Positions 3,058 to 19,281 of a stretch of 24,000 nt of DNA are shown piece after piece. The notes beneath the pieces were generated by a model that saw nothing but the letters and a program-made list of their open reading frames with translations, did no database searches and was not told the DNA's origin. Position 1 is the first letter of the stretch. Every line of letters begins with the position of its first letter. The stretch is from NCBI RefSeq assembly GCF_000829435.1, contig NZ_JXRP01000009.1, positions 865,720-889,719 of the forward strand, written 5' to 3'. This DNA comes from Jeotgalibacillus soli (GTDB lineage Bacteria; Bacillota; Bacilli; Bacillales; Jeotgalibacillaceae). The position numbers and the translations under genes are program-made.

Positions 3058-3834
3058 CTATTGCTTCATTGCTAAGTCGGAATAGGCAGTTAAATTAAAT
3101 ATTTTTCTTAAAGCAAGGATCACTCCTTGGTGGTCATTATCCTCAGTCACCCAATCAGCGCTTTTTTTCACAGAGTCTGGGGCATTTTTCATAGCAACTC
3201 CTAACCCGGCAGCTTCCAGCATTTCGATATCATTTGTGCCATTACCAATTGTAACGACTTCATTTTGCGTAATTCCAAGCTGATTGATTAGCGGTAAAAT
3301 GCCTGTCCATTTTGAGCCTGCTGGAAATACTTCCAGTCGGTCTCCTTCATCAAAACCAGCAGCCTCAGTAATCATTTCTTGAAGAGCAGCACGGTGCTCA
3401 GCCTGAATATAAAGAGCCAGTCGGTGCGCGTCTTGCTTTGTATCGATGATATTCGATTCTACCGCTTCAGGCAGCAGGTATTCTATTCCGCGAGGTGGAT
3501 GGTTGGAACGTGAAGTGCGATCTGAAAAATGAATAAAGACTCCGTTCAATTCATGTGTCCTTTTACAAAGAACATGTGCTAGGCTGGATGGGATTTTGAC
3601 ATCGTGGATTACACTGCCTTCTGAAAGAACATATCCCCCGTTATAAGTAACATAGATAGAAGTTCCTAATTTTTCACCATACGGGATCGCCCCATCTAAA
3701 GATCGCCCCGTTGCCAACGCTACGAGCACACCCTTCTGTTGAATTTCCCGGACTGTTTTAACTAGCTGCTCATCAAGCTGTTCTTGAGAATTTAAAATAG
3801 TTCCATCAATATCAAGAAAGACAATTCTATACAT
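3058..3834 (-). CDS. Cof-type HAD-IIB family sugar-phosphate phosphatase
   Basis: HAD motif I FLDIDGTILN, motif II ATGR, motif IV GNGTNDIEMLEAAGLGVAM. Start moved to ATG 3834, where RBS GAGGAGG is 6 nt upstream. The TTG at 3837 used by the ORF track is only 3 nt from the RBS. Confidence 0.9.
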   Translation of the reverse strand: MYRIVFLDIDGTILNSQEQLDEQLVKTVREIQQKGVLVALATGRSLDGAIPYGEKLGTSIYVTYNGGYVLSEGSVIHDVKIPSSLAHVLCKRTHELNGVFIHFSDRTSRSNHPPRGIEYLLPEAVESNIIDTKQDAHRLALYIQAEHRAALQEMITEAAGFDEGDRLEVFPAGSKWTGILPLINQLGITQNEVVTIGNGTNDIEMLEAAGLGVAMKNAPDSVKKSADWVTEDNDHQGVILALRKIFNLTAYSDLAMKQ

Positions 3835-3984
3835 CAAGATCCTCCTCTAAATTTTTATGATATGCGATAAAACACAAAATAATATGAACGTAAACATATT
3901 ATACAAAATACAGATTATTGTATATAGAAAGTAAAGTAAAATGATTGAAGTGAATAATTGGAAATATTTTTTTGGAAAAAATGA

Positions 3985-4026: not shown

Positions 4027-4045
4027 GTACAAAAAATTGTACAAT
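4027..4045. promoter_or_regulatory. Palindromic operator candidate (GTACAA-N4-TTGTAC, containing ATTGTACAAT)
   Basis: GTACAAAAAATTGTAC (4027-4042) has 6-bp inverted arms. ATTGTACAAT (4036-4045) is a perfect 10-bp palindrome. The outer arms AAAGTA (4024-4029) / TACTTT (4045-4050) are also inverted. Confidence 0.45.
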
Positions 4046-4148: not shown

Positions 4149-4163
4149 TTGAAATCGTTTTTT
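4149..4163 (+). promoter_or_regulatory. Second cre-like element (one mismatch)
   Basis: tTGAAATCGTTTTTT matches WTGNAANCGNWNNCW except at the penultimate C, which is T at 4162. Confidence 0.4.
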
Positions 4164-4190
4164 GAGTATGATAAATTAAATTTGTGAAAA

Positions 4191-4208
4191 TACAAAAAAA
4201 TGTACATT
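4191..4208. promoter_or_regulatory. Palindromic operator candidate (AATGTACATT) next to the yhfZ-like start
   Basis: AATGTACATT (4199-4208) is a perfect 10-bp palindrome. TACA-N6-TGTA spans 4191-4204. It occupies the same position in module copy 2 as 4027-4045 does in copy 1. Confidence 0.45.
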
Positions 4209-4228: not shown

Positions 4229-5149
4229 ATGAGAGAAGATCTCTATTCAAAAAAAGGTATTGTTTTACAAAAAATCGCTGAGGAATTACTCTTTATTGAA
4301 GTGGATGAAAGACTGCCGAAAGTAGGTGATTTCTCTGAGAAGTATCAAGTTGGAAGGGGAACCATCCAGTCTGCATTAAAAAGGCTGGAGAAAGAAAAAT
4401 GTATAACACTCGAACCAAGAGGACATTTAGGCACGTTTCTAAGAGCTAAGAACCTGTCGAATTTACTCCTGTTTTCAGGAGTAAATCAAATTACTGCTGT
4501 AATGCCGCTGCCTTATTCCAAAAAGTATGAAGGACTGGCAACAGGACTTACTTCTGAATTAGAAGGAATAGGACTTTCTCTAAATATCGCTTTTATGAGA
4601 GGCTCTAAGCTTAGGCTGGAAGGAGTAAAGGAAGGACGATACGATTTTGCTCTTATATCAAAGTATTCTGCTCAGGAAGCGTTAAAAAATGAAAGTAATT
4701 TAAAAATAGCATTGGAATTTGGAATAAAAACATATGTTTCGGAACATGCCGTTATTTTTTCAAATCCAGAAAATAAACAGCTCAAAGATGGAATGAAGGT
4801 TGGAATCGACAGTTTTTCTACGGATCAAAAGATATTAACGCAGGCTGAAGCAACTGGATTAACTATTGAGTACCTTGAATTTAATTATATGCATATGCTT
4901 CAACATCTAAAGGCAAAAACAATTGATGCAACGATTTGGAATGTTGATGAAATAGATCCGACATTATTTCATATTCAATCACTTGCTTCACCACTGGCAA
5001 TCAACTACGAAAGTCAAATGAATGAAGCGGTTTGTGTGATAAAGAAGGATAATCGAAAGATGGAGTACATTATTAATCAGCTTTCAAAAAATAAGATCGT
5101 TGAAATTCAATCAGATGTTGTTAAGGGGAATATAATTCCAAAATACTAG
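4229..5149 (+). CDS. yhfZ: YhfZ-type transcriptional regulator (GntR-like winged helix plus large C-terminal ligand-binding-like domain)
   Basis: 306 aa. N-terminal wHTH-like segment FSEKYQVGRGTIQSALKRLEKEKCITLEPRGHLGTFL, followed by a roughly 230-aa non-DNA-binding domain. Size and architecture match E. coli YhfZ (about 300 aa, from memory). It heads a cluster containing all other yhf-locus families. Confidence 0.75.
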   Translation: MREDLYSKKGIVLQKIAEELLFIEVDERLPKVGDFSEKYQVGRGTIQSALKRLEKEKCITLEPRGHLGTFLRAKNLSNLLLFSGVNQITAVMPLPYSKKYEGLATGLTSELEGIGLSLNIAFMRGSKLRLEGVKEGRYDFALISKYSAQEALKNESNLKIALEFGIKTYVSEHAVIFSNPENKQLKDGMKVGIDSFSTDQKILTQAEATGLTIEYLEFNYMHMLQHLKAKTIDATIWNVDEIDPTLFHIQSLASPLAINYESQMNEAVCVIKKDNRKMEYIINQLSKNKIVEIQSDVVKGNIIPKY

Positions 5150-5256
5150 TATATATTGTATAAAGATTTTTCATTTGGCTGCATTTTTGGGGGTGATCAG
5201 CTTCAAGGTGATAATGATTAATTGTACTTTATGAATTGCTGAGAATTAATAAACTC

Positions 5257-5285
5257 AATATACAGTATATAGTATATTGTATATT
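5257..5285. promoter_or_regulatory. Inverted repeat AATATACA-N13-TGTATATT upstream of the yhfY-like gene
   Basis: Perfect 8-bp arms at 5257-5264 and 5278-5285 enclose the tandem AGTATAT AGTATAT. It lies 31-59 nt upstream of the TTG start at 5316 and downstream of a -10-like TGATAAT (5209-5215). Confidence 0.4.
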
Positions 5286-5315
5286 TGGTTGAAAATATAA
5301 GGGGGATGAACAACC

Positions 5316-5672
5316 TTGGATGCTACTTTAAAAGAAAGAGTAGATTTACTGCATGACACGAATCAAATAAACGATGAAATTTATCATCGGTTACCAGGTA
5401 TTTTTGATGAAGTTGAAAAATATTTGGACGTAATATTGACAGAGGAAAATGCTGGATCCTTTGCTAGTCATGTGTCAGTGGCCTTACAGAGAATTTCAGA
5501 AAATAATCCTGTTACAGAGATTTCTGATGAACTTAAAAGCGTTATTGAAGCAAATCCGAAATACTACCAATTTGCTAAAGAGGTTTTATCTGCTGGAAGC
5601 TTAAATGTTGATGCCGAAGCCGCTTTTATCACACTATACTTTTGTCTATTAACTGGAGAGGAGAATGCATAA
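5316..5672 (+). CDS. yhfY: Stand-alone PRD-domain protein (YhfY-type)
   Basis: 118 aa, with a TTG start and RBS GGGGGA 9 nt upstream. PRD-like helix with conserved His/Arg, SFASHVSVALQRI; the His52 codon is at 5469-5471. No RNA- or DNA-binding domain and no EIIA/EIIB domain is attached. E. coli YhfY is about 120 aa. Confidence 0.7.
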   Translation: MDATLKERVDLLHDTNQINDEIYHRLPGIFDEVEKYLDVILTEENAGSFASHVSVALQRISENNPVTEISDELKSVIEANPKYYQFAKEVLSAGSLNVDAEAAFITLYFCLLTGEENA

Positions 5673-6043
5673 TGTTACGAATCGTTATTGGAGGTCTTAA
5701 AAAAGACGTTATTGAAAGAAGTGCAAAAGCTGCCGGAGGAGATAAGGTTCAAGTAACCGTTACTTCTGATTTTGATGCTGCAAAAAAAATAAAGGCTGGA
5801 GACGCTGATTATTATTTAGGTGCTTGTAATAGTGGAGGCGGAGCTGCGCTTTCAGTATGTATCGGTATTTTAGGCTATTCAAATTGCTCGACTGTAGCGA
5901 AAAATGGTAAAAAACCAAATCCAGCTGAAATCGAGAAATTGGTATCTGAAGGTAAAATTGCTTTTGGGATGTCCGTTGAAGGTATTGAAGAAGCAGTTCC
6001 ACTCATTGTTAATAGTCTGCTTAAAAAAAATAACCTTGCGTAG
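5672..6043 (+). CDS. yhfU: DUF2620-family small protein (YhfU-type)
   Basis: 123 aa from ATG 5672, which overlaps the yhfY-like stop as TAATG (5670-5674). Strong RBS GGAGAGGAG (5655-5663), 8 nt upstream. N-terminal beta-strand-like MLRIVIGG and a Cys/Gly-rich loop YYLGACNSGGGAALS; the Cys52 codon is at 5825-5827. The longer TTG-5642 start in the ORF track was rejected. Confidence 0.7.
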   Translation: MLRIVIGGLKKDVIERSAKAAGGDKVQVTVTSDFDAAKKIKAGDADYYLGACNSGGGAALSVCIGILGYSNCSTVAKNGKKPNPAEIEKLVSEGKIAFGMSVEGIEEAVPLIVNSLLKKNNLA

Positions 6044-6053
6044 GAGGTAGGGT

Positions 6054-7547
6054 ATGGAAAATGTTTCGTTAATTGAAGTTTTAGTCATAATGTCACTTAC
6101 AGCTTTAACGGCAATGGCTGCCCATTGGGGTAAAGCGGTATTTCATGATGGGATTCGCCCGATTATTCCTGAATATTTGGAAGGCAGAATGAAACGGACG
6201 GAACTTGCGTCCATTTCATTCGGGTTAAGTATTGGATTTATCGTATCTGTTGGAATTTCGTTCGCCGTGTCATTTGATCTATTAAATCCATGGCTATTAT
6301 TCCTTCCCACAGATATTTTAGGTGTTATCGCAACGAGATGGTGGATGGCTGCAGCACTTGGTGGAGCTTGGGGACTTGTAGCATTATTTGGGCTTACTGG
6401 CGTTCAAACCGTTTTTGCCATGCTGCCTGTTGATATCTTTAGCGCGCTAGGTGAACTATCAACGCCTGTACTTGTTGCCTTTACTGCTTTTCCGATCATT
6501 GCGATCCTCTATCAATTTGGATGGGTTAGAGCACTTATTTCTGGATTTATCGTATTGATTGTTCGTCAATTGCTGCCTGTTGTTGGCGGTAATTTTACAG
6601 ACAACGCTGATGCGAATTTAGAGCAAGCAAGTCAATTGGCTGGCATTACGCTGCCTGCAGATGGTGACTTTGCTGCCAAAGTTAATGCGCTTACAGATGC
6701 TGCTGGGAATAACCAGCAAATACAGGATTTAATCTCGCAAGCTACAAATAATTTTTCACTAGGTACGACGATTTCAAGCTTTACCATGCAAATCGCTGTA
6801 CTGATGTTAATGGGTATGATTTTATTAGTTGGTTTTGCCATCAGAAAAGATCTTAAAAACAAAGTAGCAATCAGTGTAGATACAGATGAAGAGAGTCTAT
6901 TTGACGCTCGTACAAAACGCATTTATAAAGGTATTCCTATTCTAGCAGGTATCGGTGCACTTTTAGCTATCGCGGCCAATATGGGGCTAATGACTGGTTC
7001 CGAGGTGTCTGGTCCAATTCTTCAGCAGGCATGGCAGGCTACGGGGCAAGAACAGGCCGATCTATTACAAAGTGCGGCGATCGCTGATTTTATCAGGGGG
7101 ATCAGTTTTATCCCATTGATCGTTACAACCGCTTTAGCAACAGGTGTATATGGGGTTGTTGGTTTAACCTTCGTATTCCCAATTGGTTATTTATTGCCGA
7201 ATCCATTTTTGGCAGGGATTGCTGGAGCAGTTTGGATTTGTTTGGAAATTATTGCTCTTCGTGGAATTGGACGTTTCCTTCAGCGCTTCCCGTCATTGCG
7301 TGAAGCATCTGACAACATCCGTTCATCCATGAACTCGATGATTGAGCTTGCTTTATTTATCGGTGGAGCATTTGCCGCAATGGTAATGGCACCAGAGGCA
7401 GTTGGCTTATCTCTAACCATTTACATTTTGCTGTATGCTGCCAACGAAGGTCTTGGACGTCCTGTTATGAAGCTTGCTGCTGGTCCAGTAGCGATTATCT
7501 TAACAGGTATCATCCTAAACGTACTGTATTTCCTTCAATTAGTATAA
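6054..7547 (+). CDS. yhfT: YhfT-type polytopic membrane protein (putative permease)
   Basis: 497 aa and very hydrophobic, with many TM-length segments. RBS TAGGAGGT lies 6 nt upstream. It begins 10 nt after the yhfU-like stop. It contains one long hydrophilic segment (codons at 6591-6770). Confidence 0.75.
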   Translation: MENVSLIEVLVIMSLTALTAMAAHWGKAVFHDGIRPIIPEYLEGRMKRTELASISFGLSIGFIVSVGISFAVSFDLLNPWLLFLPTDILGVIATRWWMAAALGGAWGLVALFGLTGVQTVFAMLPVDIFSALGELSTPVLVAFTAFPIIAILYQFGWVRALISGFIVLIVRQLLPVVGGNFTDNADANLEQASQLAGITLPADGDFAAKVNALTDAAGNNQQIQDLISQATNNFSLGTTISSFTMQIAVLMLMGMILLVGFAIRKDLKNKVAISVDTDEESLFDARTKRIYKGIPILAGIGALLAIAANMGLMTGSEVSGPILQQAWQATGQEQADLLQSAAIADFIRGISFIPLIVTTALATGVYGVVGLTFVFPIGYLLPNPFLAGIAGAVWICLEIIALRGIGRFLQRFPSLREASDNIRSSMNSMIELALFIGGAFAAMVMAPEAVGLSLTIYILLYAANEGLGRPVMKLAAGPVAIILTGIILNVLYFLQLV

Positions 7548-7555
7548 ATTCATTG

Positions 7556-7585
7556 AAAGGTAGGAGCATTCCTACCTTTTCCTTT
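7556..7585 (+). terminator. Intra-cluster hairpin (attenuator, partial terminator or processing/stability element) between yhfT-like and php
   Basis: Perfect 10-bp stem AAAGGTAGGA (7556-7565) / TCCTACCTTT (7570-7579) with loop GCAT, followed by an interrupted U-tract TCCTTT. It starts 9 nt after the yhfT-like stop and ends 14 nt before the php ATG, running into the php RBS GGAGAG (7587-7592). Confidence 0.5.
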
Positions 7586-7599
7586 AGGAGAGATTTTAT

Positions 7600-8514
7600 A
7601 TGAAAATTCAATCTGTTACAGGTCCGGTCGATCCTCAATTTTTACAAAAAACGATGATTCATGAGCATCTTGTATTTGATCTATCAGAAGTTCGCGAGGA
7701 AAAAGATGCAGATTCCAAGCTTGAAAATTCACCAGAGCTGGATCAAGAAATAAAGAGAATTATCGAATCGGGATGTAATACTGTCGTCGAGGTATCAAAT
7801 ATTGGGATGGGCCGGGATGCCAAAGCGATGTTCGATATTGCAAAAAAGCATAATTTAGTCATTATAGCTTCTACCGGCTTCTATAAAGAATCAGTATATC
7901 CATCTTTTGTTTTTGAAAAAACGAAAGAAGAGCTTGCCGAAATCATGATTCGTGAAATTGAAGATGGAATGGACGATACGACGATCAAAGCTGGTTTGAT
8001 AGCTGAAATCGGCAGCAGCTATCAAGAGATCACCGAAACGGAGAAGAAGGTTTTTGAAGCTGCGATCCTTGCTCATAAAAAAACAGGTGCTCCAATCAGT
8101 ACGCATTGTGAAATCGGAACAATGGGAAAAGGGCAGCTTGATCTTTTTCAAGAAAATAATGCTGATATGAGCCGTATTTCTTTTGGGCATCAGGATTTAA
8201 ATGAAGATATTGAAGAACAGCTTGAATTGTTAAAAAGCGGTGCGTTTATTCAATTCGATACAGTAGGAAAAAACAGCTACAGAAGAGATTCAGACAGACT
8301 TAGCAATCTGATCGAATTACTTAATCTCGGGTACGAAGATCAATTGATGCTATCTTGTGATATTACAAGAAAATCTCATCTAAAAAGCTTTGATGGATAT
8401 GGTTACAATCATCTTTTCGAGGATTTCATTCCTGCATTATTAAATAACGGAGTAAAGGAAGAAACCATTGATAAAATGCTTGTTCAAAACCCGCGTAGGT
8501 TTTTAGCTTTTTAA
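7600..8514 (+). CDS. php: Phosphotriesterase-homology protein (amidohydrolase superfamily, Php/PTE-like lactonase group)
   Basis: 304 aa. From memory it aligns block by block with E. coli Php: HEHL..DLS (metal-binding HxH), KAGLIAEIGSS, EKKVFEAAILAHKKTGAPISTH, FGHQDL, GAFIQFDTVGKNSY, LSCDITRKSHLKSFDGYGY, FIPALL, MLVQNPRRF. Confidence 0.92.
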   Translation: MKIQSVTGPVDPQFLQKTMIHEHLVFDLSEVREEKDADSKLENSPELDQEIKRIIESGCNTVVEVSNIGMGRDAKAMFDIAKKHNLVIIASTGFYKESVYPSFVFEKTKEELAEIMIREIEDGMDDTTIKAGLIAEIGSSYQEITETEKKVFEAAILAHKKTGAPISTHCEIGTMGKGQLDLFQENNADMSRISFGHQDLNEDIEEQLELLKSGAFIQFDTVGKNSYRRDSDRLSNLIELLNLGYEDQLMLSCDITRKSHLKSFDGYGYNHLFEDFIPALLNNGVKEETIDKMLVQNPRRFLAF

Positions 8515-8676
8515 TTTGATAACAATATTTTATAGAAGAAAGACGTACGAAAATTCACTTTAATTTCTTATATTAGGGCTTTGTTAAACGTGTCTGTTGA
8601 TTTCCTCTCCAATTAACGCTGTGCATAAATAAACAATGGACTTTAACATAGCTTGTGTTAGAAAGAAGGGTACGTG

Positions 8677-9783
8677 ATGGCTGATCAATCTGTATTAAAA
8701 AACATGACTTTTGAAGAAGCGAAAGAGCTTCAATTTCGGCTAATGGATGAAGTAACAAAGGAATTCAAAAATAATGAGTTTTTTCAGACAGGTGATGTAG
8801 GTATTCATCCAGCCTATAATCGTCCATTAATGACAGCGAGGATCGAAAGTGTACTGGCAAAAACCTTTGATTCAGAAGCGTGTGCATTGGTTCGGGGAAG
8901 TGGAACGGGCGCCATTCGAAACATTCTTAGCGTATTAATGGAGCCCGGTGAACAGTGTATTGTTCATGAAGCACCAATGTATACAACAACAAAGGAAACC
9001 TTTCGTTTAATGGGATTAAAGCAAAAACGCGTTAATTTTAATGATCGAGCCGCATTGATTAAAGCTCTTCAGGAGGATAAACAATCGAAGGTTTTTTATG
9101 TTCAGCATTCTCGTCAGCAGCCGAACGATACTTATAACTTGAAAGAGATCATTTCACTTGTAAAAGAACATGGTCGGGATTTACCGATTGTGGTTGACGA
9201 TAATTATTGTGCCATGAAAACAATAGAAATCGGCACCCAGTGTGGGGCAGACTTTTCTGCATTCTCTGGTTTTAAGCTTTTAGGGCCTGAAGGAATCGGA
9301 ATTATTCTAGGTGGAAATGAGAAAATCCAGCAGCTTCACGATCGGAATTATTCGGGCGGAGGACAAGTGCAAGGCCATGAAGCACATGAATTACTCATCA
9401 GTTTATCCTCTGCACCAGTGATGCTTGCCATTCAAAATGAGCAGGTTGAGCATTTATGCTCCCGGTTAAGCGAGGGTGAGGTAAGCGGAATCAAGCAGGC
9501 TTATATGACAAACTCACAATCAAAAAATGTCATTATAGAATTCGAGCAGCCAATTGCTGAGCAAGTGATTGAATTGGCTTCTAAGTTTGGGGCAGCAACT
9601 TATCCGGTTGGTGCTGAGTCGCGCTATGAATTAATACCAATGATCTACCGGGTATCTGGAAGCTTTATTGAAAGCAGACCCGAGCTAAGACAACATGGGG
9701 CACGAGTAAATCCTATGAAATCTTCTGCAAATACCGTTGTACGAATTTTACAAAATGTAATGGAAGAAATATCAAGGGGGTAA
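8677..9783 (+). CDS. yhfS: PLP-dependent enzyme, aminotransferase class-V-like fold (YhfS-type)
   Basis: 368 aa from ATG 8677, with RBS AGAAGGG 6 nt upstream. The candidate Schiff-base lysine motif SAFSGFKLLGPEGIG resembles the class-V pattern S-x-x-K-x-x-G-P-x-G-x-G. E. coli YhfS is about 360 aa. Confidence 0.7.
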   Translation: MADQSVLKNMTFEEAKELQFRLMDEVTKEFKNNEFFQTGDVGIHPAYNRPLMTARIESVLAKTFDSEACALVRGSGTGAIRNILSVLMEPGEQCIVHEAPMYTTTKETFRLMGLKQKRVNFNDRAALIKALQEDKQSKVFYVQHSRQQPNDTYNLKEIISLVKEHGRDLPIVVDDNYCAMKTIEIGTQCGADFSAFSGFKLLGPEGIGIILGGNEKIQQLHDRNYSGGGQVQGHEAHELLISLSSAPVMLAIQNEQVEHLCSRLSEGEVSGIKQAYMTNSQSKNVIIEFEQPIAEQVIELASKFGAATYPVGAESRYELIPMIYRVSGSFIESRPELRQHGARVNPMKSSANTVVRILQNVMEEISRG

Positions 9784-9790
9784 CACACCC

Positions 9791-10954
9791 ATGTTTATCA
9801 ATATGACACTAAGACGAAATGAAGGACTAATTAGAGCAGCAGCTAATCTCCATCAAGAGGGGAAAATTCCAGCTAATACGTATGTAATTGATTTAGATTC
9901 ACTTGAACATAACGTAAATAAGCTCAGTCTAACAGCACAACAGCATGAAATGAATTTATATTATATGACCAAACAAATCGGCCGAAGCGGCTTTGTTGGG
10001 CAAGTAATTGAACAAAATGGAATTAAACGTGCAGTAGCCGTAGATATTGATGAAGCATTTGAGCTCAAAAAGACCAATTGCGAGATTGGTAATATTGGAC
10101 ATATTGTACAGCCTAGCAAGTCCCAATGGAATGAAGTATTAACGTATTTAAAGCCTGAAGTAGTGACATTGTTTTCGAGCGAAAGAGCCAAGCAATTATC
10201 TGATGCAGCCCTTGCTTTAGGTAAAATTCAAAATGTAATTCTTCGAGTAATTAAGCCGGAGGACATGGTATATCCTGGCCAATTTGGCGGCTTCTTATTG
10301 GGTCAGCTGGATGGTTATTTGGATGAAATATTGAAATTAAAAGGAATTCGGGTCATTGGTATAACCAGTTTTCCAGTATTACAAATAAACGATGAAAAAG
10401 ACGATTTCGCTTTTACTTCTAATATGCAAACCATTCAGAAGGCACGTGAAATCTTTGAAAATAAAGGGATTGCTGTTACTCATATCAATGCTCCTAGTGC
10501 GACAAGCTGTCATACGATTCCAATGCTAAAAGAATTTGGTGTCACTCATGGTGAACCTGGTCATGCGCTGACTGGAACGACGCCTTTACATGCGTATCGA
10601 GATGATTTGCAAGAGATTCCTAGCATTGTGTATACTTCTGAAATTTCCCATATGGATGAGGAGTACGCCTATACAATTGCGGGCGGTTATTATCCGCGTT
10701 CAAATATGGAAGGTGCATTATTTGGGAGTAATGGATCGGACGTACTAAACCAGCGTACAACTGTCGATCTAGTGTCACCTGAAAATATTGATTATTACGG
10801 CTGTTTAAAAAAACAAGATCAAATGAAGGTCGGGGATTCAGTTATACAAGCATTTCGAACTCAAATCTTTGTTACAAGGGCTCATGTTGCCTATGTAAGA
10901 AACGTGAACTTTCATAATCCCGAGTTAGTTTATTTTCAAAGAAGGGGGATGTAA
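9791..10954 (+). CDS. yhfX: Alanine-racemase-fold (fold-type III) PLP enzyme (YhfX-type)
   Basis: 387 aa, the length I recall for E. coli YhfX. It starts 7 nt after the yhfS-like stop. An early lysine in LYYMTKQIGRSGF is positioned like the PLP lysine of alanine-racemase N-terminal barrels. The family call rests on memory and context and needs an HMM check. Confidence 0.65.
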   Translation: MFINMTLRRNEGLIRAAANLHQEGKIPANTYVIDLDSLEHNVNKLSLTAQQHEMNLYYMTKQIGRSGFVGQVIEQNGIKRAVAVDIDEAFELKKTNCEIGNIGHIVQPSKSQWNEVLTYLKPEVVTLFSSERAKQLSDAALALGKIQNVILRVIKPEDMVYPGQFGGFLLGQLDGYLDEILKLKGIRVIGITSFPVLQINDEKDDFAFTSNMQTIQKAREIFENKGIAVTHINAPSATSCHTIPMLKEFGVTHGEPGHALTGTTPLHAYRDDLQEIPSIVYTSEISHMDEEYAYTIAGGYYPRSNMEGALFGSNGSDVLNQRTTVDLVSPENIDYYGCLKKQDQMKVGDSVIQAFRTQIFVTRAHVAYVRNVNFHNPELVYFQRRGM

Positions 10955-10957
10955 GGA

Positions 10958-12145
10958 ATGAGAAAAATGACTCTCCTTGTACTCGACGGATTCGGTATCG
11001 GGGCAATGGATGATTGTAAAATTGTCAAGCCTGAAGATGTGAATGCCAATACCTATAAGCATATACGAGAGGCCGTTGATTTATTAATTCCTACATTATA
11101 TAAGCTTGGGCTTGGGAAAATAGTGGACAATGAGGGTGTTCCTGTTGCAGCATACGGTAAAAGTAACTTAGCACACCCAGGGGCAGATACATTTTTAGGG
11201 CATCAGGAGTTAATGGGAAGCAAGCCGAAAGAACCCAATAAGCGTTTAATGATGGATGTGGGGATTCATATCAAGGCTGCACTGGAAGCAAAGGGCTATG
11301 AAGTAAAATATGCAGTTGACCGGGGAACGGCATTGCTTGTTAATGGTTCAGTGGTTATTGGCGATAATCTTGAATCACAGCTTGGAAACATTATAAATGT
11401 CGTCGGTGATTTGAACCATCTATCGTTTGAGGAGCTTACTGAAATAGGGAAAATCGTTAGAGAAAATGTTGATACAAGCAGAGTGATTATTTTTGGCAAT
11501 GAAAAGACAACAATTGAAACCATTCTATCGGTTGTGAAAGAGAATCATCCTGGTCAATGGGGAGTGGATAGTCCAAAAGCAAATGTATATGGTGAGGGGT
11601 ATCGCGTACTTCATTTAGGCTATGGCGTTGATTACCAAAAACAATTTGCATACATGGCCGAACAAAACAACGTTCCCGTATACCGTATTGGAAAAACCGC
11701 TGACGTAATTCAGGCAGAGGGATTTAAAGACCCTGTGGTCAATACAAAGGACGTGCTGGAGACCTACCGCAGCTATTATAGAAACAGTGAAGAGAACGCT
11801 GTTTTTCTTGTAAATGTTCAAGAGACAGATCTAGCCGGGCATAAAGAAGACAGTCAGTGGTATAAGGAAGTATTAGAAGAGTCTGATCGATTTTTAGCAT
11901 CATTTATAGAAGAAATGAATGATGACGATTTGTTAATTATCACAGCAGATCATGGGAACGATCCAACAATTGGCCATTCAAATCATACAAGAGAACAAAC
12001 GCCAATATTGATTGTTGGTAAACATGTAAAAGCAGTTACAATCGGAACGAGAGATACAATGGCTGATATTGCAGCAACGATGGCGGATTTCGTAGGTGTT
12101 GAGAAACCTGAGTTTGGTAAAAGCTTTCTGCAGGAGATTTTGTAG
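10958..12145 (+). CDS. yhfW: Phosphopentomutase-like metalloenzyme (alkaline-phosphatase superfamily mutase, YhfW-type)
   Basis: 395 aa. DeoB-like motifs LVLDGFGIGAMDD, GHQELMG and ITADHGNDPTIGHSNHTREQTPILI. It starts 3 nt after the yhfX-like stop, with RBS GGGGGA. Confidence 0.8.
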   Translation: MRKMTLLVLDGFGIGAMDDCKIVKPEDVNANTYKHIREAVDLLIPTLYKLGLGKIVDNEGVPVAAYGKSNLAHPGADTFLGHQELMGSKPKEPNKRLMMDVGIHIKAALEAKGYEVKYAVDRGTALLVNGSVVIGDNLESQLGNIINVVGDLNHLSFEELTEIGKIVRENVDTSRVIIFGNEKTTIETILSVVKENHPGQWGVDSPKANVYGEGYRVLHLGYGVDYQKQFAYMAEQNNVPVYRIGKTADVIQAEGFKDPVVNTKDVLETYRSYYRNSEENAVFLVNVQETDLAGHKEDSQWYKEVLEESDRFLASFIEEMNDDDLLIITADHGNDPTIGHSNHTREQTPILIVGKHVKAVTIGTRDTMADIAATMADFVGVEKPEFGKSFLQEIL

Positions 12146-12199
12146 AGCTTTATTAGAATCCAAATTTGATATTTGCCTTTAACGAGAGGAGTGCAGCGG

Positions 12200-12949
12200 A
12201 TGAAACTTGTTAAAGTTAAAAACTATGAGGAATTAAGTGCTTTTGCGGCAGAAAAAATTCTTGAAAAAGTACGTTCTTCTAACAGGGTTTCACTTGGTCT
12301 TGCAACAGGAGGGACCCCTGTCAGAACCTATGAATTATTAATTGATGATTTTAAAAAGAGAAAGACTTCCTATCAGCATGTTCATACGTACAATTTGGAT
12401 GAGTATGTAGGGATAGCGGCTGATGCTCAAACAAGCTATCAATATTACATGTTTGAGCATTTGTTCAATCATATTGATATACCGAAAGAAAATGTTCATC
12501 TTCCAAATGGTACTGCTGAAAATATTCTGCAGGAAACGCAAAGATATGAAGATGCAATCGATAAACTGAAAGGTGTAGATCTGCAGCTTCTTGGAATTGG
12601 AGAAAATGGACATATCGGCTTTAATGAACCAGGAACGCCATTTGATCGGACGACTCATGTGACAGAGCTTGAAGAATCTACGAGAGAAGCCAACTCCCGT
12701 TATTTTAATAGCCTGGATGAGGTGCCGACCCATGCTATTACCATGGGGATTGCAACGATTTTAAAAAGTAAAGAAATCGTTCTTCTGGCATCAGGAGAGA
12801 AAAAAGCTGAAGCCCTCTATCAAATGTTTAATGGAGAGATCAGCAATAATTGTCCGGCTTCTGTATTAAGAAATCATCCGAATGTGATTGTAGTAGCAGA
12901 CGAACAAGCGGCATCAAAACTTGAAAAGCTCAGCACTGTCAGTAACTAA
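12200..12949 (+). CDS. nagB: Glucosamine-6-phosphate deaminase
   Basis: 249 aa from ATG 12200, with RBS GAGAGGAG. Motifs GLATGGTP, NLDEYVG, LLGIGENGHIGFNEPGT and AITMGIATIL. Collinear with B. subtilis NagB from memory. It begins 54 nt after the mutase stop with no intervening hairpin. The TTG-12173 extension was rejected. Confidence 0.93.
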   Translation: MKLVKVKNYEELSAFAAEKILEKVRSSNRVSLGLATGGTPVRTYELLIDDFKKRKTSYQHVHTYNLDEYVGIAADAQTSYQYYMFEHLFNHIDIPKENVHLPNGTAENILQETQRYEDAIDKLKGVDLQLLGIGENGHIGFNEPGTPFDRTTHVTELEESTREANSRYFNSLDEVPTHAITMGIATILKSKEIVLLASGEKKAEALYQMFNGEISNNCPASVLRNHPNVIVVADEQAASKLEKLSTVSN

Positions 12950-12967
12950 TAATGCTATATGAATTGC

Positions 12968-13020
12968 AAAATAAGCCAAATTTACTGGACACCAGGGATT
13001 AGGCTTATTTTCATTTCATT
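12968..13020 (+). terminator. Rho-independent terminator ending the yhf-like/nagB transcription unit
   Basis: Outer stem AAAATAAGCC (12968-12977) / GGCTTATTTT (13002-13011). Inner helix CTGG/CCAG, followed by a T-rich tail TTTTCATTTCATT. Confidence 0.7.
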
Positions 13021-13087
13021 CGAGTTTGTTCTATTGTTAGTATAAGCTATGGTAAGTATCTTTGTAGATTTTGGTGCTAGGTTACAT

Positions 13088-13200
13088 GGTGCGGAAGGAG
13101 TTAGGCAAAGCGTCAAACGAAGACCCCGCAGGCGTTGATATACCGCCCGTGGAAAGTGAAGGCCTTAAATGGAATTCAACAGGCTGTTTTAATAGAGTCT
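13088..13200 (+). repeat. Dispersed intergenic repeat, copy A
   Basis: GAAGACCCCGCAGGCG...TACCGCCCGTGGAAAGTGAAGGCCTTAAATGGAATTCAACAGG...AATAGAGTCT aligns with the reverse complement of 22008-22127: GAGACTCCACAAGCAAGCG...GACCGCTTGCAGAAAGTGAATGCCTGAACCGGAAATCAGCAAG...AACAGAGCCT. Confidence 0.75.
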
Positions 13201-13360
13201 TTCAACTAAAAAGCTCTCATTCATTTTTTGCACCGAGTTGATTAGAGCGGGCGCCTGAAGAGGAACTCACCGGACATGTTTAACGGAGTCTTATTATAAA
13301 GTGAAAGTGTCTACTAATTTAACTTATCTCTTTTAAAATCTGGAAAGGCGTGAATAGAAA

Positions 13361-14179
13361 ATGAGCGAATCTATTAAATTTGATTTTCACACCCATCACC
13401 ATCGCTGCGGGCATGCTAAAGGTACTACTCGGGATTATATTGAATCAGCTATTAAACAAGGATTTCATATGATTGGCATATCTGATCACTCACCGTATTT
13501 TGCAAGCGATGAGGAGCATCCTCATCCTCATATTGCTATGAGCAAAAAAGAATTTCCTTTATATATTTCAGAAGTTCTTCAGCTTAAAAAAGAGTATAAA
13601 GAAAAAATCGATGTATTGCTAGGTGTTGAATCTGATTTTTTTCCGGAGCACATTGAGCTGTATCGTAGGCAGTATAAACAATATCCCTTTGATTATATTA
13701 TTGGGTCGGTACATCATGTTGAGGGGATTAACATTTTTAATAAGGGTCGCTGGGAAGGACTTTCTGCTAAAGAAAAACAGCAAACAAAAGAAACGTACTA
13801 TCATCTTATCGAACGCTCTGCACGGAGCGGAATCTTTCAAATTCTTGGTCATATTGATGCAATGAAAGGGTTTTATCCTGCTTTTTCAACGATTCAGACC
13901 GACGCATTAACCCATACATTAAAAGTCATTGCACAGTACGATCTTGCAATAGAGATCAATACATCAGGCAAAACAAAGGATTGCGGTGGTTGGTATCCTG
14001 CAGATGATATACTCGAAATGGCCAGTTTTTATGGTGTGAGGGTTACTTTTGGATCAGATGCCCACGAAGCAGAAAGAGTCGGTGATGATTTTGAATTAGT
14101 AAGAGAAAGGCTCAAGCAAATCGGCTTTAAAGAATGGGTATATTTTAAAGAACAGAAAATGTTCACGATTGATATTTAA
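13361..14179 (+). CDS. PHP-domain phosphatase, histidinol-phosphatase HisJ family
   Basis: 272 aa. PHP metal ligands FDFHTHHHRCGHA, ISDHSP, GSVHH, LGHID and FGSDAH. Confidence 0.85.
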   Translation: MSESIKFDFHTHHHRCGHAKGTTRDYIESAIKQGFHMIGISDHSPYFASDEEHPHPHIAMSKKEFPLYISEVLQLKKEYKEKIDVLLGVESDFFPEHIELYRRQYKQYPFDYIIGSVHHVEGINIFNKGRWEGLSAKEKQQTKETYYHLIERSARSGIFQILGHIDAMKGFYPAFSTIQTDALTHTLKVIAQYDLAIEINTSGKTKDCGGWYPADDILEMASFYGVRVTFGSDAHEAERVGDDFELVRERLKQIGFKEWVYFKEQKMFTIDI

Positions 14180-14225: not shown

Positions 14226-15095
14226 ATGTATCAGATAAAACAGTTAGATGATCAAAAATATGTACTATATGAGTTAACAGACGCGAAGGCTGATTCGTGG
14301 CTAAAGGTTGCTCCAGAGAGAGGCGGGATTATTACAAGCTTTGGAGTAGAAGGTGAAGAAATATTTTTCCTGAATAAAGAAACCTTCTACGACGCTGATG
14401 CAAACGTTAGAGGTGGTAATCCTATTCTTTTTCCGATATCAGGTCAGCTTAAAAATGGGAAATATGAATGGGATGGAATTGAATATAAAATGAAAAACCA
14501 TGGATTTGCCCGTAATCTTTCGTGGGAGGTCGTGGAAACACAAACAACCGAAACCGATGGAGCCTCGATAACTTTGAAGCTTACGAGTAGTAAAGAAACG
14601 AGGCAATCCTATCCATTTGATTTCGAAGTCATTTTTACATATGTATTAAAAAACAATACGTTAAACATTCATCAGGAATACGTAAATAAATCAGATGAAA
14701 AAATGCCAATTTATCCGGGTTTTCATCCCTATTTTAAAACAGCTGATAAAAATCTTAACTATAAAACGGATGCTCAAACCTATCTGGATTATAATGATGG
14801 GGAGATTAAAAATGTAAGTGACGGTATCGATCTTTCTGGGAAAAAGGAATCCGTGGTCTTATTAGATGGGATGAAAAAGGAAATAGCGTTTGAGCTGCCT
14901 GAGCTAAACAAAAAAATTCAAATGACCTATGGAGAAGAATTTGCCTATGTTTATTTATGGACAGAGGAAGGACAGGATTTTGTTTGTGTGGAGCCATGGG
15001 TGGCAAAAACAGATGAACTGAATCGCAAAGAAGAGCTAATCTTTGTGCATCCGGGTGAATCGTTAAAAACGATGTTAACAATTTCAGTTATATAA
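14226..15095 (+). CDS. Aldose-1-epimerase-family (mutarotase-fold) protein
   Basis: 289 aa from ATG 14226, with RBS GAAGGGAAGG. Family hallmarks RGGNPILFPISG, NHGFARN, PGFHPYF and CVEPW. The upstream extension in the ORF track (14169) overlaps the preceding gene and lacks an RBS. Confidence 0.85.
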   Translation: MYQIKQLDDQKYVLYELTDAKADSWLKVAPERGGIITSFGVEGEEIFFLNKETFYDADANVRGGNPILFPISGQLKNGKYEWDGIEYKMKNHGFARNLSWEVVETQTTETDGASITLKLTSSKETRQSYPFDFEVIFTYVLKNNTLNIHQEYVNKSDEKMPIYPGFHPYFKTADKNLNYKTDAQTYLDYNDGEIKNVSDGIDLSGKKESVVLLDGMKKEIAFELPELNKKIQMTYGEEFAYVYLWTEEGQDFVCVEPWVAKTDELNRKEELIFVHPGESLKTMLTISVI

Positions 15096-15137: not shown

Positions 15138-15462
15138 ATGTATTTTTACATTTTATTTGCTGAGGATACTGTAATACCGGGAGCGTTTCCTAGCTTTTTC
15201 CTTTGTCGGACGAAGAAATCTTGCCGCGGCAAAGTCTGCTGAGATGTCAGCAGCAATTCGTAATCCATAACTTGTAAAGCAGGTTTTTAATTATTCCTTT
15301 TTAACTAAATTGCATAAATGAATAATCTCAGGCAATACTTTGTACTGTGTTAATTTAAAGGCTTCAAATGTACATCAATTTAATCGTCAGCATTAGGGCA
15401 TTTTCGTGAGCGTTAACATGAAAGATGAAAATCTACTTTTCCTTTTGATTGGAGTGTTAGAA

Positions 15463-16596
15463 ATGAAAGCTGTAACGTATCAAGGGCCAAATAATGTGGC
15501 GGTAAAGCAAGTAGACGACCCGAAAATTGAAAAGAAAGATGATGTCATCGTTAAGATAACATCAACGACGATTTGCGGATCTGATTTACATCTCTATCAA
15601 GGGAATATGCCGTTGCCGAAAGGCTATGTAATTGGACATGAGCCTATGGGCATTGTGGAGGAAGTAGGTCCTGACGTAACGAAAGTAAAAAAGGGAGACC
15701 GTGTTGTCGTTCCTTTTAATGTAGCGTGCGGACAATGTACGTATTGTCAGCATGATCTGACAAGCCAATGTGATAACTCAAATCCTCATTATGATTCGGG
15801 AGGTTATTTTGGCTATACTGAAAAATTCGGGAATCACCCAGGTGGCCAGGCTGAATATTTAAAAGTACCGTTTGGAAACTTCACTCCTTTTCTTGTTCCA
15901 GAATCGTGTGAACTGGAAGATGAATCCTTGCTCTTTTTATCAGATGTCATTCCAACTGCTTATTGGAGTATAAGTCATGCTGGTGTCAAAGAAGGGGATA
16001 CAGTAATCGTTCTCGGGTGTGGTCCTGTAGGCTTGATGGCCCAAAAATTCGCTTGGATGCATGGTGCAAAAAGGGTCATTTCGATTGATCATATTGGCTA
16101 CCGCTTAGATCATGCGAAGAAAATGAATAATGTGGAGATCTTTGACTTTGCCAAATATCCTGATATGGGAGAGCATTTAAAGGAAATTACTAAAGGCGGA
16201 GCAGATGTTGTGGTTGATTGCGTAGGGATGGACGGGAAGAAGTCTCCTCTTGAGTTTGTCGAGCAAAAACTGAAGCTCCAAGGAGGAACGCTTGGACCGA
16301 TTCAAATTGCAACAAAAGCGGTGCGGAAATTTGGTACTGTTCAAATTACAGGGGTGTACGGAGGAAACTATAACAACTTCCCATTTGGCGCTTTTTTCTC
16401 AAGGAACATTACCTTGAAAATGGGACAGGCTCCGGTTATCCCAATTATGCCAATGCTATATGAAAAAATAATGAACAAGGAATTTGATCCAAAAGAGATC
16501 ATTACCCATAAAGTCTCGCTTGATGATGCAAGCAATGCATATAAAATCTTTAATGATCACCAAGATAATGCCATTAAAATTGTATTAAAGCCTTAA
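15463..16596 (+). CDS. Zinc-dependent alcohol/aldehyde dehydrogenase, glutathione-independent formaldehyde-dehydrogenase-like
   Basis: 377 aa from ATG 15463 (MKAVTYQG). Catalytic-zinc signature GHEPMGIVEEVG, structural-zinc cluster CGQCTYCQHDLTSQC and Rossmann motif VLGCGPVGL. The size and the insertion after the Cys cluster are typical of the formaldehyde-dehydrogenase-like subgroup; substrate specificity is not determinable here. Confidence 0.85.
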   Translation: MKAVTYQGPNNVAVKQVDDPKIEKKDDVIVKITSTTICGSDLHLYQGNMPLPKGYVIGHEPMGIVEEVGPDVTKVKKGDRVVVPFNVACGQCTYCQHDLTSQCDNSNPHYDSGGYFGYTEKFGNHPGGQAEYLKVPFGNFTPFLVPESCELEDESLLFLSDVIPTAYWSISHAGVKEGDTVIVLGCGPVGLMAQKFAWMHGAKRVISIDHIGYRLDHAKKMNNVEIFDFAKYPDMGEHLKEITKGGADVVVDCVGMDGKKSPLEFVEQKLKLQGGTLGPIQIATKAVRKFGTVQITGVYGGNYNNFPFGAFFSRNITLKMGQAPVIPIMPMLYEKIMNKEFDPKEIITHKVSLDDASNAYKIFNDHQDNAIKIVLKP

Positions 16597-16625
16597 TTGA
16601 TTTCTTTATCTACTCAAATAAACAG

Positions 16626-16657
16626 AAAAGCAGAACATTGAATTGGTCTGCTTTTTC
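16626..16657 (+). terminator. Rho-independent terminator after the Zn-ADH gene
   Basis: Stem AAAAGCAGAAC / GGTCTGCTTTT (one A-G mismatch, 8-nt loop) running into TTTTT (16652-16656). Confidence 0.7.
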
Positions 16658-16689
16658 AGCGTGTTGAATTTCTAACTTATGTAAAATAA

Positions 16690-16913
16690 TTGTCACCTGA
16701 AAGCGAATTAAAGTGTGGGGTCGAATGACAATCGAGCACACATCTTGATTATGAGGTCACCTTTCCTTCTCTTTTTAGGAGAAACGGTTTGATTAATAAA
16801 GGAAAAATCAATGTAGGCACCGACAGAGCGAAGTAAGTGATCGATTGGCACTAGTTGAGTTGATCAATGGAAAGCATTTGACGATTGCGACGGGCGTTTT
16901 GAGGTTGTCTCAT
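16690..16913 (-). pseudogene. Decayed N-terminal fragment of an IS5/IS1182-type transposase (DUF772-like N-terminal region)
   Basis: The minus strand reads MRQPQNARRNRQMLSIDQLN*. After a -1 frame change it reads LVPIDHLLRSVGAYIDFSFINQTVSPKKRRKGDLIIKMCARLSFDPTL*. The block QL-VP-DHLLR----YIDFSFI...(R)-S-DP is the conserved N-terminus of these transposases. There is a stop, a frameshift and no DDE domain, so this is a remnant. Confidence 0.6.
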
Positions 16914-17872: not shown

Positions 17873-18430
17873 TTACTCAAGGTTAGCATGCTTCCCGTAC
17901 ATTGTATTGGAATCAAGCCCTTTTTTCTCCATGAAACGTAAAATAACTGCATCGAAGAATAGTAAAAGGGTTTGTTCGAAAAGTGATCCCATTGGCTGTA
18001 TGGTTTTATAATCACTCGTCGATTTATCCTTAGGAGATCCAGGTAATTTAATGACTAGATCCGCTAATTCTCCAATTGTAGACTCAGGGAAGATGGTCAC
18101 AGCAATAACTGTTCCACCTAAGCTTTTCGCTTTTTCGGCCATTGAGACTAAGCTTTTTGTTTCTCCTGAGCCGGATGCGATGATAAGAATATCATCTTTT
18201 TCCAGGTTAGCTGTAACCGTTTCACCGACAACATAAGCATCTAATCCCATATGCATCATGCGCATCACGAAGGATTTACCCATGAAACCAGATCTTCCTG
18301 CTCCTGCTACAAAGATTTTCTTTGCTTCAAGAATTTGGTTGACCAGCTGTTCAGCTTGTTCATCAGATAGTAAGTCTGCTGCTCGACTTAACTCATCAAG
18401 GATTTCGTTAAAATATCGAGTTGTCTGCAT
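17873..18430 (-). CDS. hxlB: 6-phospho-3-hexuloisomerase (SIS domain)
   Basis: 185 aa, the same length as B. subtilis HxlB. SIS motifs FVAGAGRSGF and IASGSGET. It starts 9 nt downstream of the hxlA stop. Confidence 0.93.
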   Translation of the reverse strand: MQTTRYFNEILDELSRAADLLSDEQAEQLVNQILEAKKIFVAGAGRSGFMGKSFVMRMMHMGLDAYVVGETVTANLEKDDILIIASGSGETKSLVSMAEKAKSLGGTVIAVTIFPESTIGELADLVIKLPGSPKDKSTSDYKTIQPMGSLFEQTLLLFFDAVILRFMEKKGLDSNTMYGKHANLE

Positions 18431-18439
18431 AATGAATGA

Positions 18440-19222: not shown

Positions 19223-19281
19223 TATTTTACATAGTGATAAAAAGTATACTATTGGTTATAATAAGGGTGGAGGTGAAACGA

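Follow-up and report, generated by a model that had tools for sequence, protein, structure and literature searches.

The yhf gene cluster and its closest relatives

Eight genes of Escherichia coli K-12 (b3383-b3376) are arranged in the order yhfZ-yhfY-yhfX-yhfW-php-yhfU-yhfT-yhfS (Z-Y-X-W-php-U-T-S in short), and all of them are still annotated as putative or uncharacterized. This is a long-standing puzzle despite the crystal structures of Php, YhfS, YhfX and the ligand domain of YhfZ: the entries 4J8L, 4KBX and 2OZZ carry no label beyond uncharacterized or hypothetical protein, and that of Php reads merely 'phosphotriesterase homology protein'. Full-text searches of the literature turned up no functional study of yhfS-Z, of DUF2620 (the family of YhfU) or of the Php substrate, and no paper giving a substrate or a pathway, as had been supposed in an earlier note on the DNA analyzed here. 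This DNA is a stretch of 24,000 nucleotides (nt) from Jeotgalibacillus soli (contig NZ_JXRP01000009.1, positions 865,720 to 889,719; hereafter the window), in which positions 4229-12949 encode the same eight families followed directly by nagB, the gene for glucosamine-6-phosphate (GlcN-6-P) deaminase. We propose, with somewhat less than even confidence, that the nine genes constitute a YhfZ-controlled catabolic operon linked to the phosphotransferase system (PTS), in which an amino-group-bearing compound, probably an amino-sugar derivative, would be processed as a phosphate ester.

The clusters of E. coli and the window are both co-directional blocks with the regulator gene first and yhfU directly before yhfT. 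Their gene orders are distinct, the window having Z-Y-U-T-php-S-X-W. The match to the E. coli set proposed in the earlier note was borne out, as the same families were recognized by hidden Markov models (HMMs), and YhfZ, YhfU, YhfT, Php, YhfS, YhfX and YhfW are 34-55% identical between the two bacteria (BLASTP), while YhfY is related at the level of the PRD domain only. Of the two, it is the window that has the appended nagB, a divergent gene for a HAD phosphatase and an insert of ~60 amino acids (aa) in YhfT, whereas the E. coli cluster adjoins the frl (fructoselysine) operon and lacks nagB. Altogether, the families and the cluster are already known, and the cluster in the window represents a variant from Bacillales that has its genes in a new order and is marked by nagB, the HAD gene and the YhfT insert. 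This variant and the survey of related loci described below give leads that can be framed as testable statements: a likely exit through GlcN-6-P, a minimal core of YhfU, YhfT, Php and YhfX, genomic pointers to phosphate entry from the PTS and hence PTS dependence, phosphorylation of Cys52 of YhfU and His52 of YhfY, and a defined candidate operator usable to find the inducer.

Four other kinds of systems or families invite comparison. In the canonical PTS of the Lac/Cel family, a small soluble cysteine-bearing protein is likewise encoded directly before a polytopic membrane protein, together with a PRD protein; there is likewise no kinase, enzymes of phospho-substrate families are encoded downstream, and the general PTS proteins Enzyme I (EI) and HPr are attached in some of the yhf loci. 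In contrast to the canonical PTS, the yhf system comprises no EIIA, its YhfU has an RpiB fold, YhfT has no match to EIIC, and YhfY carries no nucleic-acid-binding domain. RpiB/LacAB and YhfU have an alpha/beta fold in common and an equivalent cysteine in a glycine-rich loop (C-G-T-G-x-G versus C-N-S-G-G-G), but YhfU shows no HMM-level relation to them, is ~25 residues shorter and is always paired with a membrane protein.

The third comparison concerns amino-sugar-acid systems. The dgaABCDEF genes of Salmonella reportedly encode a D-glucosaminate PTS with the ammonia-lyase DgaE, and the Enterococcus cluster of the EF_0829-EF_0839 type is said to encode a PRD protein, an SFCGS protein, DUF4311/DUF4310 proteins, an amidohydrolase and a DgaE-like enzyme. 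Full-text searches turned up no functional study of DUF4310, DUF4311, DUF4312 or SFCGS. These systems follow the same logic as that proposed for the yhf cluster: the phosphate of an amino-sugar acid is delivered by a PTS-type route, an amidohydrolase and a fold-type-I pyridoxal phosphate (PLP) enzyme are encoded, and a kinase is missing. The yhf cluster, however, has no aldolase and comprises other membrane and small-protein families. Lastly, the phospho-furanose lactonases Lmo2620 of Listeria and Bh0225 of Bacillus halodurans belong to the same amidohydrolase/phosphotriesterase (PTE) family as Php.

A nine-gene operon

The open reading frames (ORFs) at 4229-12949 are nine in number and all on the + strand. 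The gaps between them are 166, -1, 10, 52, 162, 7, 3 and 54 nt in order, the negative one being the stop/start overlap TAATG of yhfY and yhfU at 5670-5674. Upon recomputation, all of the ORF positions, the gaps and the overlap agreed with those claimed previously, and each of the nine family assignments was confirmed by HMMs of Pfam and NCBIfam, the scores of YhfZ, YhfY, YhfU, YhfT, YhfS, YhfX and YhfW exceeding the model cut-offs and that of Php exceeding the Pfam cut-off for PTE. An intrinsic terminator closes the block at 12968-13022 (+ strand), comprising a hairpin at 12968-13011 followed by the U-rich tail UUUUCAUUUCAUUC. The hairpin has a predicted stability of -24.6 kcal/mol (z = -5.5), which none of 200 shuffled sequences attained. 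Nothing comparable was found inside the block, where a simple scan of the + strand gave two weak matches, both within yhfT, and the structure of the 162-nt php-yhfS spacer was no better than chance (z = +0.4); the terminator after nagB is thus the sole convincing one, as had been stated. Rfam gave zero matches in the window at gathering thresholds and a single chance-level match at E <= 1, and neither a riboswitch nor a RAT-like element was found there. The tight packing, the one strong terminator and the nine confirmed families identify the nine genes as a real operon.

No gene for a kinase, an ABC or MFS transporter or a PTS EIIABC protein was found within 4229-12949, in agreement with the earlier note, and none of the other window ORFs of at least 100 aa, nearly all of which were checked with HMMs, was kinase- or transporter-like.

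Conservation of the gene set

One genome per species was scanned for relatives of YhfT, which were found in 338 of 185,579 species genomes. The best 80 loci were examined with 10-kb flanks by tblastn with the nine window proteins, and 1,466 flanking ORFs were clustered; surveyed loci are denoted by L numbers below. The gene set travels together, in several orders, in Bacillales, Clostridia, Erysipelotrichales, Thermoanaerobacterales, Coprothermobacter and Sebaldella, as well as in Streptomyces, Actinomadura, Vibrionaceae and Enterobacterales. Wherever both genes were detected, yhfU was located immediately upstream of yhfT (80 loci and E. coli). Such co-occurrence in several orders over distant lineages substantiates the idea that the genes form one functional unit. 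The set of eight is conserved as a set but not obligatory: YhfS was absent in about half of the loci, including those of Paenibacillus and Anaerocolumna and nearly all of those of Vibrio and Photobacterium, and Yersinia alsatica (L084/L085, 6353-11296) possesses a reduced cluster, Z-(Y)-X-php-U-T, with neither yhfW nor yhfS. Thus, the irreducible core consists of the U-T pair, Php and YhfX, plus the regulators YhfZ and YhfY.

Several Bacillaceae carry a paralogous second, sometimes third, module of the yhf type beside the main cluster. This module is arranged as Z'-PRD'-U'-T'-S', and its proteins are 32-52% identical to those of the window. Examples are found in Bacillus sp. T33-2 (L004, 17044-21316 and 4784-6797) and Neobacillus pocheonensis (L008, 16969-21326 and 197-6163), and in L006, L009, L010 and L013 such a module directly follows nagB. 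The paralogous modules suggest a family of related substrates.

The cluster of Clostridium butyricum (L082/L083, 8277-15555), together with an upstream gene for a Na/Pi cotransporter, lies between rpsI and cwlD. These two genes are neighbours in Bacillus subtilis, and the block therefore looks like an inserted island. A link to peptidoglycan was considered and rejected, as the amidase gene after this cluster is cwlD and its position is coincidental to the insertion between rpsI and cwlD; a muramic-lactam or spore-cortex substrate was set aside for the same reason.

Linkage to nagB

The ninth gene, nagB (12200-12949, + strand), encodes a bona fide GlcN-6-P deaminase, with a score of 295.3 bits against the cut-off of 236.9 for TIGR00502, and the translation carries the GENGHIGFNEPG motif. 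We place the start at an ATG preceded 8 nt upstream by the ribosome-binding site GGAG, the mechanically delimited ORF beginning at TTG 12173. In 17 of the 70 informative loci, nagB directly follows the last core gene, and all of the 17 are of Bacillales. They represent Jeotgalibacillus, 'Bacillus', Peribacillus, Neobacillus, Brevibacillus, Melghirimyces, Pullulanibacillus, Thalassobacillus and Alicyclobacillus shizuokensis, and the gap before nagB is ~30-60 nt in almost every case. The gene preceding nagB is yhfW in most of these nine genera, yhfX in Pullulanibacillus and Thalassobacillus, and ptsI in A. shizuokensis. No linkage was found in the other 53 loci. The remaining Thermoactinomycetaceae and two further Alicyclobacillus species lack it, as do Clostridia, actinomycetes, Vibrionaceae and those enterobacteria that were examined, E. 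coli among them. The linkage is thus real and repeatedly retained but lineage-specific. The earlier note had taken the fusion to nagB to mean that the pathway ends in GlcN-6-P. The linkage behind that claim stands in Bacillales, where the pathway probably drains into GlcN-6-P, but the claim itself becomes a lineage-specific hint because the fusion is confined to that order.

In Vibrionaceae, the cluster has neighbours of other kinds. A 730-aa secreted protein with a CBM5/12 domain is encoded beside it in L051, L061, L066, L067 and L076. Cel-type PTS genes are also found beside the cluster, as a full IIB-IIC-IIA set in L051, L067 and L080, and the same three loci encode a DUF7916 protein. These neighbours lie downstream of yhfW in L051, L061 and L067, and upstream of yhfZ in L080. 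A DUF7916 gene also lies between yhfW and ptsI in Alicyclobacillus macrosporangiidus (L020, 15598-16392). The CBM5/12, Cel-type PTS and DUF7916 neighbours in Vibrionaceae are hints of chitin- or chitosan-derived substrates.

Possible ties to the PTS and the YhfU-YhfT pair

No recurrent kinase family was found among the 1,466 clustered flanking ORFs. On the other hand, ptsI is located directly downstream of the cluster, and in the same direction, in six of the 80 loci (L020, L021, L028, L047, L052 and L063), which belong to four lineages (two Alicyclobacillus, Anaerocolumna, two Paenibacillus and one Eubacteriales metagenome-assembled genome, MAG), and HPr is encoded alongside in L028 and L052. 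The order W-ptsI-nagB-HAD in A. shizuokensis ties ptsI, nagB and the HAD gene to the operon. A PRD protein with one invariant histidine was found in the surveyed loci wherever it could be called.

YhfU (5672-6043, + strand; DUF2620, Pfam 147 bits) has no solved relative. Its AlphaFold2 (AF2) model (pLDDT 95) matched best the RpiB structures of the Protein Data Bank (PDB; TM 0.64-0.71, E ~1e-4), and the top 50 fold matches included cobalamin-binding domains, receiver domains and flavodoxins besides RpiB. All of 38 sequences compared have Cys52, within the motif D-Y-Y-x-G-A-C-N-S-G-G-G-A-A (GACNSGGGAA in the window), and in the model this invariant residue lies in a glycine-rich loop where beta-3 ends and alpha-3 begins. 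In a profile search of PDB sequences, this residue was aligned weakly to the cysteine of the RpiB motif CGTG (C-G-T-G-x-G; E = 0.25-0.31). The likeness to RpiB does not extend beyond the fold and this cysteine: Pfam LacAB_rpiB gave no match to YhfU even at E <= 10, and in a comparison by eye with the known active-site residues of RpiB we found neither the Asp-His pair at the beta-1 loop (YhfU reads GGLKK) nor the C-terminal phosphate-binding helix, YhfU having 123 aa against ~150. A HMMER search with the DUF2620 profile against 1.84 billion representatives yielded 170 matches at E <= 1e-3, and the 10 divergent or fused ones that were checked were all DUF2620 and gave no bridge to RpiB or EIIB. 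Among the fused proteins, an actinobacterial DUF2620-PRD fusion (P0216) appears to be genuine and, as a single case, lends slight support to the PTS link. Two others were discarded as sequencing artefacts, namely P0181 (Php-DUF2620), which is a stop-loss read-through in E. coli, and P0184 (DUF2620-YhfT), the garbled middle of which is typical of a frameshift.

YhfT (6054-7547, + strand; Pfam YhfT 457 bits) is a polytopic membrane protein of 497 aa, presumably a permease, and likewise has no solved relative. At E <= 10, Pfam gave only YhfT itself and a chance-level match to FATC (E = 0.045). The AF2 model is of good quality (pLDDT 89, pTM 0.87). Six arginines are invariant (R35, R48, R171, R348, R416 and R423), and comparison of the N-terminal with the C-terminal half by hhalign gave a probability of 41% (E = 3e-4) for a possible internal duplication. 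Homologues mostly have ~433 aa. The insert of the window protein (residues ~175-235, window positions 6570-6750) is hydrophilic, rich in N, Q, A and D, modelled as confident helices, and found only in the clade of Bacillaceae and Brevibacillus.

The earlier note had conceived of YhfU and YhfT as a possibly PTS-coupled uptake module and called for comparison with the folds of EIIB and EIIC. The coupling gains some support from ptsI in six loci, HPr in two and the invariant histidine of YhfY, while the comparison revealed no likeness, YhfU having an RpiB fold and YhfT matching no solved structure. The cysteine in a glycine-rich loop at a helix start, the strict pairing of yhfU with yhfT, the PRD partner, the linkage to EI and HPr, and the lack of a kinase make it plausible that the U-T module is an analogue of a PTS Enzyme II, not a relative of EIIB and EIIC.

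Predicted regulation by YhfZ and YhfY

The first gene, yhfZ (4229-5149, + strand), encodes a GntR-type helix-turn-helix (HTH) protein with a YhfZ_C ligand-binding domain. It scored 380 bits against the cut-off of 260 for the NCBIfam equivalog NF041241 (YhfZ_full); its N-terminus is matched by HTH_41 and GntR of Pfam, and its C-terminal domain is covered by PDB 2OZZ. The 390-nt intergenic region that yhfZ has in common with the divergent HAD gene contains TACAA-N4-TTGTA twice, where 0.5 chance matches are expected per whole window. The first copy, a candidate YhfZ operator, is the palindrome TACAAAAAATTGTA at 4028-4041, an exact match to GTACAAAAAATTGTAC at 4027-4042. The second candidate, TACAAAAAAATGTA at 4191-4204, is found 25 nt ahead of the yhfZ start, shortly after a promoter-like site (4149-4177). 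L001-L013 have the motif of the second candidate at a matching relative position, as have L014, L023, L026, L034 and L044, which are distant loci, and the palindrome recurs before yhfZ, and often before yhfY, in Melghirimyces, Coprothermobacter, Hungatella, Pullulanibacillus and Paenibacillus. A GT...AC core, as present in TACAA-N4-TTGTA, is typical of operators of the GntR family. This motif likely marks YhfZ operators.

Close relatives carry a perfect TACAA-N4-TTGTA in the yhfZ-yhfY spacer. In the window, this spacer contains a degenerate A/T-rich palindrome, ATATACAGTATATAGTATATTGTATAT (5257-5286), and a promoter-like site (5246-5273) extends into it; we tentatively regard this stretch, an imperfect match, as a candidate operator and promoter of a transcript from yhfY to nagB. 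YhfZ combines an HTH domain with conserved palindromes near promoters, as a GntR-type regulator should, the operators being predicted sites. From this arrangement we infer that yhfZ is autoregulated, probably together with the HAD gene, and that YhfZ also controls the yhfY-nagB transcript.

YhfY (5316-5672, + strand) is a PRD-only protein of 118 aa (Pfam PRD, 34 bits against 23). Its start codon is TTG, at which the close relative L001 has ATG. His52 is invariant across 23 homologues in the pattern H-x3-A-x2-R, while the second PRD histidine position is variable. YhfY lacks an output domain for the binding of RNA or DNA and therefore does not qualify as a regulator of the BglG/LicT or MtlR/LevR type.

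Enzymes and associated phosphoesterases

Php (7600-8514, + strand) is a binuclear-metal hydrolase of the PTE family (Pfam PTE, 280 bits). In the PDB it was matched best by the entries for Php of E. coli (1BF6/4LEF, E = 9e-74), and next by 3PNZ, the structure of Lmo2620 of Listeria. The window protein falls below the cut-off of the NCBIfam equivalog of Php (300 versus 486), and the closest characterised NCBIfam family after Php itself is that of the phospho-furanose lactonases (NF045706), for which it scored 118 bits against a cut-off of 630. It is an orthologue of Php and lies outside the phospho-furanose lactonase family.

Two PLP enzymes follow. YhfS (8677-9783, + strand) is of fold type I (YhfS-like_C, 157 bits), starts at an ATG with a GTG at 8674, matches PDB 4J8L ('uncharacterized protein YhfS', E = 1.5e-96), and bears a weak resemblance to the DgaE family (E = 0.0015). 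YhfX (9791-10954, + strand) has the alanine-racemase fold (fold type III), with the domains YhfX-like_C and Ala_racemase_N, and matches PDB 4KBX (E = 3.5e-72). YhfW (10958-12145, + strand) is a phosphopentomutase-like metalloenzyme, with 526 bits against a cut-off of 254 for NF009049 (PRK12383). Its C-terminal half matches the phosphopentomutases of the PDB (E = 3e-32), but with 154 bits against 341 for TIGR01696 it does not classify as DeoB.

The gene divergent from yhfZ (3058-3837, - strand) encodes a Cof-type HAD-IIB phosphatase (Pfam Hydrolase_3, 162 bits; NCBIfam Cof-subfamily, 146 bits against a cut-off of 137). A member of the same family adjoins the cluster in 15 loci, including those of Alicyclobacillus and Sebaldella, and the HAD phosphatase is a probable accessory member of the system. 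In different lineages, the edges of the cluster are occupied by phosphoesterases that are not homologous to each other, namely HAD, a HisJ-type PHP-domain protein, GDPD, ComB-like and Y_phosphatase3 proteins, and phosphorylated intermediates therefore fit the system.

A gene for a HisJ-family PHP-domain phosphatase is also present in the window beyond the terminator (13361-14179), and it follows nagB in five close relatives. The next gene, for an aldose-1-epimerase-like protein (14226-15095), is present in two of these five. Three clusters contain an inserted gene for a protein of ~350 aa with a weak match to Pfam Amidase (25-32 bits), those of Alicyclobacillus fastidiosus (L019, 13435-14490), a Thermoanaerobacterales MAG (L022, 12341-13480) and Sebaldella (L056, 11335-12366). 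The L019 protein, the single one checked, was matched by no NCBIfam model.

A proposed pathway and its alternatives

The operon, as we propose it, would work as follows. YhfT would be the permease and the small cytoplasmic YhfU would act with it as a unit. The phosphoryl group would arrive during uptake, passing from phosphoenolpyruvate (PEP) via Enzyme I and HPr to Cys52 of YhfU as the last carrier; we propose phosphorylation at this step because no recurrent kinase was found, the enzymes belong to phospho-substrate families, and the loci have ties to the PTS. Php would then open a lactone or ester bond, YhfX, and YhfS where present, would act at the amino-bearing carbon, and YhfW would shift the position of the phosphate. 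In Bacillales, the product would be GlcN-6-P, which NagB would convert to fructose-6-phosphate and ammonia, and the HAD phosphatase may relieve a build-up of sugar phosphates. YhfZ would bind TACAA-N4-TTGTA over its own promoter, in common with that of the HAD gene, and over the promoter of yhfY-nagB, while YhfY may report the phosphorylation state via His52.

A number of observations weigh against this proposal. No gene for Enzyme I, HPr or EIIA is present in the window. EIIB is absent from the top 50 PDB fold matches of YhfU, hhalign gave a probability of 0.1% for YhfU against the Cel-type EIIB, and the cysteine of the Lac/Cel-type EIIB follows beta-1, whereas that of YhfU follows beta-3. 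For YhfT, no EIIC-like profile or fold was found (hhalign against the Cel-type EIIC, probability 0.7%), and its model matched no solved structure (best E = 0.03, TM < 0.2). Several of the loci without YhfS have an adjacent CUT1-type ABC transporter or Cel-type PTS, by which uptake might actually proceed in those loci. Some lineages can do without YhfS and YhfW, so that the chemistry may differ among variants, and the absence of nagB from most loci means that GlcN-6-P may be one branch only. That YhfU and YhfT represent a new kind of group-translocating or PTS-driven uptake, and with it a new family of PTS Enzyme II among the uncharacterised genes of E. coli, we consider unlikely. Such a family would combine a permease fold unlike any solved transporter, a partner of the RpiB fold whose cysteine takes over the phosphoryl group of HPr and hands it to the substrate, and YhfY as the sensor. 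If this were true, the pairing of an RpiB-fold protein with a membrane protein whose fold has no known counterpart would make up a new transporter family; if it were wrong, the operon would still stand for a new catabolic route for amino compounds, spanning Gram-positive and Gram-negative bacteria.

In another explanation, YhfT would be a permease of an ordinary kind, coupled to ions, or would import a compound already phosphorylated (e.g., a phospho-sugar, or a fragment of the glycerophospho or teichoic-acid type). YhfU would then be a cytoplasmic RpiB-like aldose-ketose isomerase of the pathway instead of a phosphocarrier, and YhfY would only pass on the general PTS and catabolite status. 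The RpiB fold of YhfU with its cysteine aligned to that of CGTG, the lack of likeness to EIIB and EIIC, and the lack of EI, HPr and EIIA genes in the window all agree with this; the invariant arginines of YhfT would suit an anionic substrate, and GDPD is among the phosphoesterases at the cluster edges. Against it, neither the Asp-His pair, the C-terminal helix nor a LacAB_rpiB match was detected in YhfU. The strict adjacency of yhfU and yhfT, for which a free enzyme would have no need, suggests that YhfU physically associates with the membrane protein, and catabolite control alone hardly explains EI/HPr in six loci and the DUF2620-PRD fusion. We regard this explanation as rather unlikely.

Two further explanations were considered. 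The core might handle a compound of the 5-phospho-pentofuranose type, for example an amino acid conjugated to a ribosyl or pentonolactone moiety, instead of a hexosamine, with nagB being added to serve a side branch. The characterised enzymes closest to YhfW, Php and YhfU (phosphopentomutase, phospho-furanose lactonase and RpiB) and the scarcity of nagB among the loci speak for a pentose, but the matches to DeoB and to the lactonases are far under the family cut-offs, nagB is a genuine member of TIGR00502 kept in nine Bacillales genera, and the CBM5/12 and Cel/chitobiose-type PTS neighbours in Vibrionaceae fit hexosamine sources. We thus find a pentofuranose substrate improbable. Still less probable, in our view, is that the adjacency of nagB bears no functional meaning and that nagB is a housekeeping gene with its own expression. 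A promoter-like site with 9 of 12 matching positions does lie within the 3' end of yhfW (12015-12042), nagB is absent from most yhf loci, and cwlD after the C. butyricum cluster is a comparable positional coincidence. The 54-nt gap between yhfW and nagB contains no hairpin, however, and the only strong terminator follows nagB; moreover, nagB stays in the terminal position though the preceding gene varies, among loci with YhfT identity down to 43%.

Genes surrounding the operon

At the DNA level, the window and Jeotgalibacillus proteolyticus 22-7 share 93-95% identity. A stretch of ~140 nt with a higher G+C content, located 3' of the nagB terminator (13060-13270), has no counterpart at this position in J. 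proteolyticus 22-7; neither a second copy in the window or the fetched loci nor an Rfam match was found for it, and it could have arisen by a small insertion or be left over from a mobile element. A gene for a Zn-dependent alcohol- or formaldehyde-dehydrogenase-like protein (15406-16596, within 15258-16889) is missing from the J. proteolyticus locus, which is syntenic in other respects. Further downstream, hxlB and hxlA, which are ribulose-monophosphate genes, lie on the - strand and are accompanied by a divergent gene for an HxlR-like regulator (17873-19647), and zwf is found at 22497-23969; the surroundings are rich in sugar-phosphate genes with no evident tie to the yhf operon. Genes for germinant receptors of the GerA family (GerA and GerAC) lie beside the cluster in L001 (2890-6675), L002, L007 and L057, which represent at least three genera, and on the corresponding side the window has a catalase gene.

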